In this document: piece by piece, positions 47,140-48,368 of the stretch
Layout of the letters: the number at the start of each line of letters is the position of its first letter
Numbering within the stretch: the first letter of the stretch is position 1
Source: Escherichia phage 212
Length of the DNA: 64,000 nucleotides
Strand: one strand, 5' to 3'
Sequence record: PQ765507
The notes under the pieces: generated by a model
What the model was told of the DNA's origin: nothing
The model's input: the letters and a program-made list of their open reading frames with translations, nothing else
Databases searched by the model: none
Made by a program: the position numbers and the translations under genes

Positions 47140-47694
47140 ATGAGCTTATATACTGACCTTCTATCAAATGTAGACTGGTTTGGCGGTAGTGGTCTTGCCA
47201 CTGAAACTAACACAGTTCTTTATAGAATCCGCGGTGACTTGGGTTATTCCAATGATTTCTTAAGAAGAACAACTAGCCGCGGTGATACTACAAAATTGCC
47301 TTTTATTTTTGCTTTAGCTGAAGACCTTTCTTTCACAGATGCCCTGGAAATTATTGACGTAAATCTGGGTATTCAACGAGTGGAATTCGCTGGGCTGAGT
47401 TATTCAGTATATGCTTTAAACGACCCTAGCGATTATAAACAACTTATTAATGCGGATGATGATGACCATTTGGTATGTTATTTGATGTTAGAAAATGGTG
47501 ACCACTTTGGAATGGTTGACCGTCGTCCAACTTATACTGATATTAAAAATTATGATAAAGATGAGCTTCTTGATTTGGCGGCTGAGTACACATTAGAGAG
47601 TCGTAAACGGAAACGTAAGCTTAATCGTTTTATTGCTGAATGTCGTGAATATGCTAAAGGGGTTCAAAATGCGAACGTTATATCTGCCAAGTAA
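47140..47694 (+). CDS. hypothetical protein (184 aa)
   Basis: ATG with GGGAGAGGAG RBS; C-terminus ...RFIAECREY. Confidence 0.5.
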   Translation: MSLYTDLLSNVDWFGGSGLATETNTVLYRIRGDLGYSNDFLRRTTSRGDTTKLPFIFALAEDLSFTDALEIIDVNLGIQRVEFAGLSYSVYALNDPSDYKQLINADDDDHLVCYLMLENGDHFGMVDRRPTYTDIKNYDKDELLDLAAEYTLESRKRKRKLNRFIAECREYAKGVQNANVISAK

Positions 47695-48028
47695 ACCAGA
47701 AAAATTTGTGTACGCGGACAAGATTGATAAAGACCTTATGCCTCCATTTGGGGCTCTGTCCATGTGCGTCGTTGGGGTTATAATGATGGTGCTTTGTGGG
47801 GATATGAATATCATTAGTGTTGGAGTCGCCTGGACGCTAGTAATTGCAGCTCCTTTTATTACGGTCCTGTGTATGATATTGATAAATGTGTGGCATCAAA
47901 ATCATATGAATAAAGGATATCGTGGACGAGTTAAAGAGTGGGAACAAAAATGTGTTTCCCTACAAGAAGAGCACAAAATTAAATGCGCCGAAGAATTTAT
48001 TAAGGAGGTTCGTAATGGAACGGCCTAG
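47669..48028 (+). CDS. small membrane protein (119 aa)
   Basis: ATG with AAAGGGG RBS overlapping the upstream gene; two TM-like segments; C-terminus ...EEFIKEVRNG. Confidence 0.5.
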   Translation: MRTLYLPSKPEKFVYADKIDKDLMPPFGALSMCVVGVIMMVLCGDMNIISVGVAWTLVIAAPFITVLCMILINVWHQNHMNKGYRGRVKEWEQKCVSLQEEHKIKCAEEFIKEVRNGTA

Positions 48029-48368
48029 TCTTGCATCACATGTTTATCAATTGGCTGAATATGATATTGGTGCCAATTTATTATTAGGGATTGTCACCGC
48101 CATGCTTGGCGGCCTGGTTGGTCTGGTAATGACCACGGTTATGGCTGCAATCGAGGGAGTGATGCCTATTGAGATGGGCTTCTTTATGATAATCGCTCCG
48201 GCTGTTGTGTCTTATTTTATCCCTGTTGTGTATGATATCTGTCACACAAATGCCGTGAATGCTCCTAGTCGGAAGAGATATGCTTCAGCAATGGCTGAGT
48301 ATAATAAGTTCCTAGACAAAACAAAACGCAATGAACTTGAAACCTTTATTAAGGAATGTAAATCATGA
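48015..48368 (+). CDS. small membrane protein (117 aa)
   Basis: ATG with AAGGAGG RBS; TM-like segments; C-terminus ...ETFIKECKS. Confidence 0.5.
   Translation: MERPSLASHVYQLAEYDIGANLLLGIVTAMLGGLVGLVMTTVMAAIEGVMPIEMGFFMIIAPAVVSYFIPVVYDICHTNAVNAPSRKRYASAMAEYNKFLDKTKRNELETFIKECKS

Follow-up and report, generated by a model that had tools for sequence, protein, structure and literature searches.

A conserved Cys-Arg C-terminal tail on the e.2 to e.5-type early proteins of a T4-type phage, dual-coded with the ribosome-binding site of the following gene

The window analysed here, a 64,000-nucleotide stretch of DNA from Escherichia phage 212 (PQ765507), contains four small plus-strand genes whose products carry a common peptide, F-[I/V]-x-x-C-R or a close variant of it, at or near the C-terminus. 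The genes are assigned as SP18-type counterparts of T4 e.5, e.4, e.3 and e.2, small early accessory genes placed between e.6 (46503–47096) and nudE/e. In our reading these counterparts form overlapping units that share one tail at the protein level, with the ribosome-binding site (RBS) of the following gene dual-coded within it, and the tail would have a docking role; we give this overall reading a probability of roughly 0.6. Three of its components taken jointly, the protein-level motif, the dual coding and the recombination at gene junctions, can be stated with high confidence. The observation is real and rests on solid statistics; the mechanism is what we infer from it.

The four tails are RFIAECREY (e.5-like product), EFIKEVRNG (e.4), TFIKECKS (e.3) and SFIEECRK (e.2), and they are related beyond chance. 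The pattern F[IV]x[ED][CSV][RK] has six matches in the six reading frames of the 64 kb, four of which are the gene tails. The core [FW][IV]xxC[RK] yields three matches among the 101 called genes (20,283 aa), each time no more than 15 residues from the C-terminus; residue shuffling gives an expectation of 0.19 matches anywhere and 0.027 for C-terminal matches. The tail is confined in this genome to this gene cluster, and bases 1–50000 of phage SP18, a region rich in small early genes, contain no match to the motif in a real gene. The original prediction, made from the sequence of the window, was that the genes overlap and end in related peptides. All four peptides are indeed present, with the qualification that the first gene runs on for 15 residues past its motif, and the overlaps with the next gene amount to 26, 14, 4 and 4 nt, the last two being of the ATGA type. 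The genes are probably translated as overlapping, coupled units. Coordinates are collected in Table 1.

Table 1. Positions of the four genes, their tail motifs and the two junction repeats within the window (SD, Shine–Dalgarno sequence; TM, transmembrane)
Feature	Position	Strand	Remarks
e.5-position gene (SP18gp144-like)	47140–47694	+	184 aa, soluble; ends ...LNRFIAECREYAKGVQNANVISAK
Tail motif FIAECR, e.5-like gene	47629–47646	+	15 codons from the stop; does not supply the SD of e.4
Junction repeat A, GCTAAAGGGGTTCAAAATGCGAACG	47653–47677	+	SD, ATG and first codons of e.4; encodes YAKGVQN
e.4 ortholog (assigned)	47669–48028	+	119 aa; predicted two-TM hairpin, K/R-rich N- and C-tails
Tail motif FIKEVR, e.4	47996–48013	+	Cys-less variant (Val for Cys); SD AAGGAGG for ATG 48015
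Junction repeat B, ATTAAGGAGGTTCGTAATGGAACGG	47999–48023	+	346 bp downstream of repeat A
e.3 ortholog (assigned; SP18gp142-like)	48015–48368	+	117 aa; predicted two-TM hairpin
Tail motif FIKECK, e.3	48345–48362	+	AAGGAA is the SD for ATG 48365 (ATGA overlap)
e.2 ortholog (assigned)	52581–53168	+	195 aa; acidic N-domain (WxxLDDGDEGI..VDWxGC), predicted two-TM hairpin, TM2-to-tail helix
Tail motif FIEECR, e.2	53145–53162	+	GAGGAA is the SD for ATG 53165 (ATGA overlap)

Between 47000 and 48500 the window is 99.9% identical at the DNA level to Shigella phage SP18 (Tevenvirinae, Gaprivervirus), and we assign its source to an SP18-like T4-type phage of the genus Gaprivervirus. The rest of the window is mosaic, with the segment 49400–51900 nearest to VR7 and VR26 (96% identity). 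SP18gp135, a 109-aa soluble tail carrier with the C-terminal end LFLEYCRSSIQV, is apparently absent from the window, as judged by coordinate comparison with the SP18 locus (L001 10886–11215).

The e.4 product matches phrog_2604 (E 7.8e-45) and T4 e.4 itself (blastp 2e-15 over 122 aa), and its gene lies between e.5 and e.3. The e.3 product matches phrog_2330 (E 8.2e-46) and, over the full length, T4 e.3 (blastp 3e-9), directly after e.4. For e.2, which is positioned upstream of nudE, the match is to phrog_2203 (E 1.9e-66), the conserved N-domain is aligned, and P0065, a protein 100% identical to the window e.2 protein, carries PF26896 (Phage_T4_Y06M). The e.5-like gene sits between e.6 and e.4, as T4 e.5 does. 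Its product has a PHROG of its own (phrog_8788, E 7e-112) and matches the T4 e.5 family, phrog_2607, weakly (E 0.001). Profile alignment with hhalign pairs it with the Klebsiella-phage e.5 family (P 92%, 158 columns) and with T4 e.5 (P 63%, 35 columns), and the blastp alignment with the latter covers the tail only. A joint e.5 profile finds Klebsiella-phage and Aeromonas-phage members; T4 e.5 and RB69 e.5 are not evident among its matches. The tail motif is the same as in T4 e.2–e.5 (UniProt Y06M–Y06P; PF26896 Phage_T4_Y06M and PF26876 Phage_T4_Y06P; PHROGs 2203, 2330, 2604, 2607 and 8788), and the window matches the T4 gene order e.6, e.5, e.4, e.3 ... e.2, nudE, e. It differs from T4 in the e.5-position body, which is barely similar to T4 e.5, and in approximately 4 kb of extra genes between e.3 and e.2.

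The tail is conserved across several genera of T4-type phages, represented by T4, RB69, and Klebsiella and Aeromonas phages. In T4 it reads FVKECREY in e.5, FVKESRC in e.4 and FVIDCRK in e.3. The RB69 carriers are e.5, e.4, e.3, e.2 and ORF133c, and paralogs of the Klebsiella Jiaodavirus phages end in FIKYCRE, FIKEVRR, WIRSCRK, WIKEMK and FIAKCRA. The tail is also found in 18 IMG/VR loci anchored on e.6 and in one further T4-like Logan contig. BLAST clustering of all open reading frames (ORFs) of the loci yields 13 clusters with the Cys form in every (or every intact) member, and several more that are Cys-less. Started from the single e.3-like sequence, homolog searching went no further than relatives of at least 73% identity, and alignment queries were needed for distant homologs. 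The e.5-family profile matched only 23 representatives among 1.84 billion. The 17 more distant of these were retrieved, including a second Aeromonas-phage-like form of ∼290 aa, and in every intact one F[IV]xxCR lies 3–9 residues from the C-terminus.

Conservation at the residue level follows the same pattern. The e.5 alignment (A5), with an overall identity of 15–20%, shows no variation at C168 and R169, and F164 is invariant or nearly so across the family; for e.2, all 54 sequences agree at F189, I190, E192, C193 and R194. Among 99 unique tails, whose consensus positions 0, 1, 4 and 5 are set by the tail selection itself, position −3 is Leu, Ile, Val, Phe or Met in 95, position −2 is Asn, Glu or Asp in 85 and position +3 is Glu or Tyr in 79. 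The extended motif is hydrophobic-[N/E/D]-x-F-[I/V]-x-[E/Y]-C-R-[K/R/E]. Three T4 tails have Val at position 2 and adjacent Klebsiella-phage genes have Trp, which suggests concerted evolution of tails within a genome, a signal too weak to claim. The T4 reference e.2 (102 aa; L006 5722–6195, corresponding to AF158101 67,487–67,960, complement) is shortened relative to the 162 aa of close relatives by −1 and +1 frameshifts located 77 nt apart in the alignment, and the original frame still contains the codons for FITECRKLK. This truncation is either a real laboratory-strain pseudogene or a product of old sequencing errors.

The motif sits on at least six unrelated protein bodies. When the tails are trimmed before hhalign comparison, e.3 and e.4 remain linked through 32 juxtamembrane columns (P 68%, E 4.6e-5), and these two genes look like distant tandem paralogs. 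Links also persist between e.4 and a Klebsiella-phage 98-aa hairpin protein (KR1_98; P 58%), between two hairpin families of Klebsiella-phage-like loci (KR1_108 and L020_128; P 46%), and among the e.5 families; no further links are kept. The e.2 protein, RB69 ORF133c and the soluble 95-, 102- and 109-aa proteins share only 16–25 tail columns with other carriers. The earlier suggestion of a family of small membrane proteins is supported for e.4 and e.3, which look related beyond their tails; the e.5-like carrier is soluble and has no transmembrane (TM) segment. That suggestion was to fall if the proteins had nothing but the tails in common and RBS requirements accounted for the whole motif. The first half applies to several pairs, with e.2 and e.3, and e.5 and all others, similar in the tail only; the second half fails, as described below.

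These relationships bear on plain paralogy, in which the carriers would all have arisen through tandem duplications of a single ancestral gene and the tail would be its slowest-evolving remnant, a helix cap for example, with no common partner. The tandem arrangement of the genes, the similarity of e.3 and e.4 that outlasts tail trimming and an N-terminal M-x-(K/R/E)-P common to members are all in keeping with it, as are PHROG cross-matches over approximately 80 residues, which link e.4 to phrog_2330 and e.3 to phrog_2203 (the C-terminal half of e.2). We nevertheless consider paralogy of all carriers unlikely. Compared with the hairpins after trimming, the soluble e.5 family, the 95–109-aa soluble proteins and the e.2 N-domain reach an hhalign P of only 0.2–4%, and C-R is the sole invariant element across the divergent e.5 family. 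Judged by these comparisons, the soluble carriers cannot be paralogs of the hairpin members.

The junctions between the genes are similar to one another and act as recombination sites flanking a gene unit, with e.4 gained or lost exactly from ATG to ATG. This gene is present in SP18, VR20, VR25 and VR26-type genomes and absent from JS98 and VR5-type genomes. The two genome types differ by exactly 346 bp, the spacing between the e.4 ATG (47669) and the e.3 ATG (48015), and those lacking e.4 have the hybrid junction GCTAAAGAGGTTCAAAATGGAACGGCCTAG. Recombination between repeats A and B, which are identical at 15 of 25 nt as counted from the sequences, accounts for the e.4-less relatives. We interpret the YAKGVQN segment, located in the extension of the e.5-like product, as a second, degenerate copy of FIKEVRN, the e.4 tail. 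The corresponding T4 junctions, e.5/e.4 and e.4/e.3, have 16 identical nt in common, AAATTTGTTAAGGAAT.

The closest described shuffling mechanism is that of the PeSLs, intergenic elements composed of a sigma-70 promoter and a terminator hairpin (PMC2839356). The window junctions resemble them in being short repeats at gene borders of a hyperplastic region that flank sites of gene insertion, deletion or replacement. They differ in being coding overlaps that lack a stable fold and any promoter or terminator signal exceeding background. Promoter-like sites in the scan number 24, compared with 21.6 in shuffled sequences, and none is at a junction; no terminator above background is found there, and the junction RNAs are no better folded than shuffled sequence (z-scores +1.3 to −0.5). 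On these results the junctions do not belong to the PeSL class. The only GC-rich hairpin, AGGGGGC-TTT-GCCCCCT at 47103–47119, is located between e.6 and the e.5-like gene; it is terminator-like on the minus strand only and may be an RNA-stabilizing or boundary element.

The idea of a shared 3' cassette, also part of the original prediction, is supported by the exact exchange of the e.4 unit between junctions and by the occurrence of the tail on unrelated bodies. That the junctions owe their maintenance to a PeSL-like shuffling of gene units, as the same two observations, the hybrid junction of the e.4-less genomes and the T4 repeats might also suggest, is improbable: conservation lies at the amino-acid rather than the nucleotide level, the identity of paralog junctions within a genome is modest, as in the window, and microhomology recombination is more likely a consequence than a selected function.

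The codon composition of the tail and the position of the RBS show a peptide selected as amino acids, with the RBS superimposed on it. Synonymous sites vary. The tail Cys is encoded by TGT in 20 cases and TGC in 19, the Arg by AGA (15), CGT (14), AGG (8), CGC (8) and CGA (4), with switches of codon family inside individual protein families. The SD also moves under a constant peptide. Where the next ATG is 18–21 nt from the F codon, the SD lies on codons 3–4 (nt 6–8) as AAGGA, GAGGA, AGGAG or AAAGG, and the corresponding residues are K-E, E-E, R-S or K-G. At 27 nt the AGG Arg codon itself provides the SD (AGGAA), leaving residues 3–4 free (T-E, I-D, S-D); they are likewise free when the start is at 26–29 nt, where the SD lies on R-G codons, or at 33–41 nt, where it falls beyond the motif. 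Three families (KR1_102sol, f109 and L024_290) have no overlapping or abutting start and still keep the motif. The SD of the next gene is thus written into free tail codons, at positions 3–4 or through the choice of AGG for Arg, and the tail region is therefore dual-coded. The SD within the e.4 tail, AAGGAGG, is made up of tail codons 3–4 (AAG GAG) plus the G of GTT. The K-E at positions 3–4 in the window genes is the contribution of the RBS; the F, I/V, C and R are not. ATGA overlap coupling, common in T4, has the same placement of the SD inside the last codons of the upstream gene. It differs from the arrangement in the window, where the peptide is the constant part and the SD is accommodated by free positions and synonymous Arg codons.

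The converse arrangement, in which the nucleotide sequence would be kept as the RBS or coupling site for the gene that follows, with the peptide as a by-product, has some observations on its side. The SD lies inside tail codons in three of the four window genes and in most relatives, with the next ATG 18–27 nt after the F codon; the predicted role of the motif as the SD source holds for those three, the SD of e.4 being AAAGGGG, 10 nt after the motif of the e.5-like gene. The DNA consensus proposed earlier, ttattRaRgaRtg, matches exactly at 48346 and 53146, in two of the four genes, where 0.05 matches are expected. Such an element is nonetheless largely refuted, and we regard it as very improbable, since synonymous sites are free while the amino acids are fixed, the SD position varies relative to the peptide, the motif persists in the three families with no adjacent start and the junction RNAs show no significant structure. 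In addition, all 26 overlapping or abutting junctions listed for the window have an SD-like purine run in the last upstream codons, and the 22 others lack F-I..C-R. The earlier suggestion of an encoded translational-coupling element is therefore not supported as an explanation of the motif. A C-terminal nascent arrest peptide was also considered and is ruled out by the distance from motif to stop, which varies from 0 to 15 residues.

Three of the four products were predicted to have two TM segments, and Kyte–Doolittle analysis agrees, giving two hydrophobic segments in e.4 (approximately residues 27–47 and 55–77), e.3 (approximately residues 20–42 and 53–75) and e.2, and none in the 184-aa product. 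The loops between the segments are short and contain no or one Lys/Arg, and the C-terminal tails contain eight or nine, which by the positive-inside rule implies that both termini of e.4, e.3 and e.2 are cytoplasmic. The AlphaFold2 model of e.2 is reliable for the hairpin and the tail helix only; it contains helices at 105–133 and 138–194, with pLDDT values of 85–91 for the hairpin, and the single helix that starts with TM2 at residue 138 and continues to residue 194 includes the motif. The motif is accordingly modelled at the end of a cytoplasmic α-helix in e.2, and a similar location is assumed for e.4 and e.3.

Our tentative proposal is that the tail serves as a cytoplasmic docking or assembly helix. 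It would bring the soluble e.5 protein and several membrane-anchored proteins together, or recruit them to a common partner in the cytoplasm, with the invariant Cys-Arg pair at its end as the contact or reactive site. No function is assigned to e.2–e.5 in the libraries searched: the four proteins have nothing significant in Pfam (the set without PF26896), NCBIfam or PADLOC, and the e.5 profile has no PDB match. The literature searched contains no description of these genes or of a common tail, and we know of no function reported for e.2–e.5 in T4. A candidate tail partner is the e.6 protein, whose gene is invariably the immediate upstream neighbour of the e.5-family gene. It has 197 aa, is coiled-coil-like by sequence and shows 81% mean column identity across T4, RB69 and Klebsiella phages. 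Profile searches gave no Pfam relative for it and no PDB match better than E 0.58, and the idea of a PspA/IM30-type coiled-coil partner finds no support at the sequence level, with no Pfam match to PspA.

Several points weigh against a docking role and the reading built around it. The common partner is a postulate. The restriction of the tail to one cluster may reflect local recombination rather than common function. The membrane members may simply be paralogs, as the PHROG cross-matches imply, and the shared 16–25 tail columns could be a remnant of common ancestry instead of a functional module. The Cys is replaced by Val, Ser, Ile, Met or Leu in e.4 and some paralogs and is therefore not essential in every carrier. 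The AlphaFold2 prediction for the e.5-like protein, based on a 22-sequence alignment, has a pLDDT of only 36.

A more specific and more doubtful version of the docking proposal is suggested by analogy. The capsid targeting sequence (CTS) of T4 internal proteins, MKTYQEFIAE, is an N-terminal peptide that targets them to the prohead and is cleaved by the gp21 protease. The CTS system is the subject of work by Black and colleagues and by Repoila et al. in 1994; its conserved coding sequence reportedly doubles as a recombination site. The window tail resembles the CTS in being a short peptide common to unrelated small proteins, encoded at polymorphic loci in the same genome region. It differs in being C-terminal and predicted to be cytoplasmic, in its frequent attachment to membrane hairpins and in its Cys-Arg core; targeting is here a proposal. 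The tail might function as an address tag at the C-terminus, the cytoplasmic analogue of the CTS, that would deliver unrelated accessory proteins to one host or phage machine, and new effectors would then be recruited by recombination at the junction of tail and RBS. A reading of I-x-E in the tail as a gp21 protease site or CTS relative was rejected because the Glu at position 4 is replaced by Tyr, His, Ser, Gly or Lys in many carriers. Elsewhere in the window, an 89-aa ORF (54379–54648) starts with MKTYQEFLAE, which resembles the T4 internal-protein CTS; the likeness of its EFLAE to the tail RFIAEC is probably coincidental.

A role in superinfection exclusion or immunity, as originally suggested, is scarcely credible: the proteins include small inner-membrane hairpins from an early region and e.3 has a weak, sub-threshold SieB match (E 0.13; 12.3 bits against a cut-off of 26), but no exclusion or defence family in Pfam, NCBIfam or PADLOC is matched significantly, the SP18 genome has imm and sp annotated at other positions, and the motif is also present on soluble proteins.

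Other shared tails occur in the neighbourhood. Four tandem genes of 75–96 aa (48365–48655, 48665–48946, 48956–49183 and 49193–49426) have a second common C-terminal motif, in the forms WVSSSAMC, WVSSSYEC, WFNSSMSC and WYPSSC, and tails of this type recur in RB69, Klebsiella-phage-like loci, an Aeromonas-phage-like locus and a Logan contig (clusters 7, 8, 9, 18 and 23). In the same hyperplastic region, the neighbouring genes at 44655–45080 (141 aa) and 45164–45607 (147 aa) encode a common C-terminal peptide, (V)VQSYASNFRK. Between e.3 and e.2, a 321-aa protein (50223–51188) contains DUF7277 (E 2e-27) and DUF7275 (E 7e-74) and has the same position in RB69 and other relatives; the 216-aa ORF at 51185–51835 is annotated as 'restriction endonuclease' in VR7 and VR26.

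The exact gain and loss of e.4 shows that coding junction repeats, and not just intergenic PeSLs, mediate the exchange of gene units in hyperplastic regions of these genomes. The dual coding, with a fixed peptide and an RBS held in free or synonymous positions, is a constraint to be respected in genome recoding and phage engineering. For the orphan proteins e.2–e.5, the Cys-Arg tail on unrelated bodies provides a concrete, mutable site with which to look for a partner. If the address tag is real, T4-type phages would possess a modular docking system for effectors, and the tail would offer a first clue to what e.2–e.5 do.

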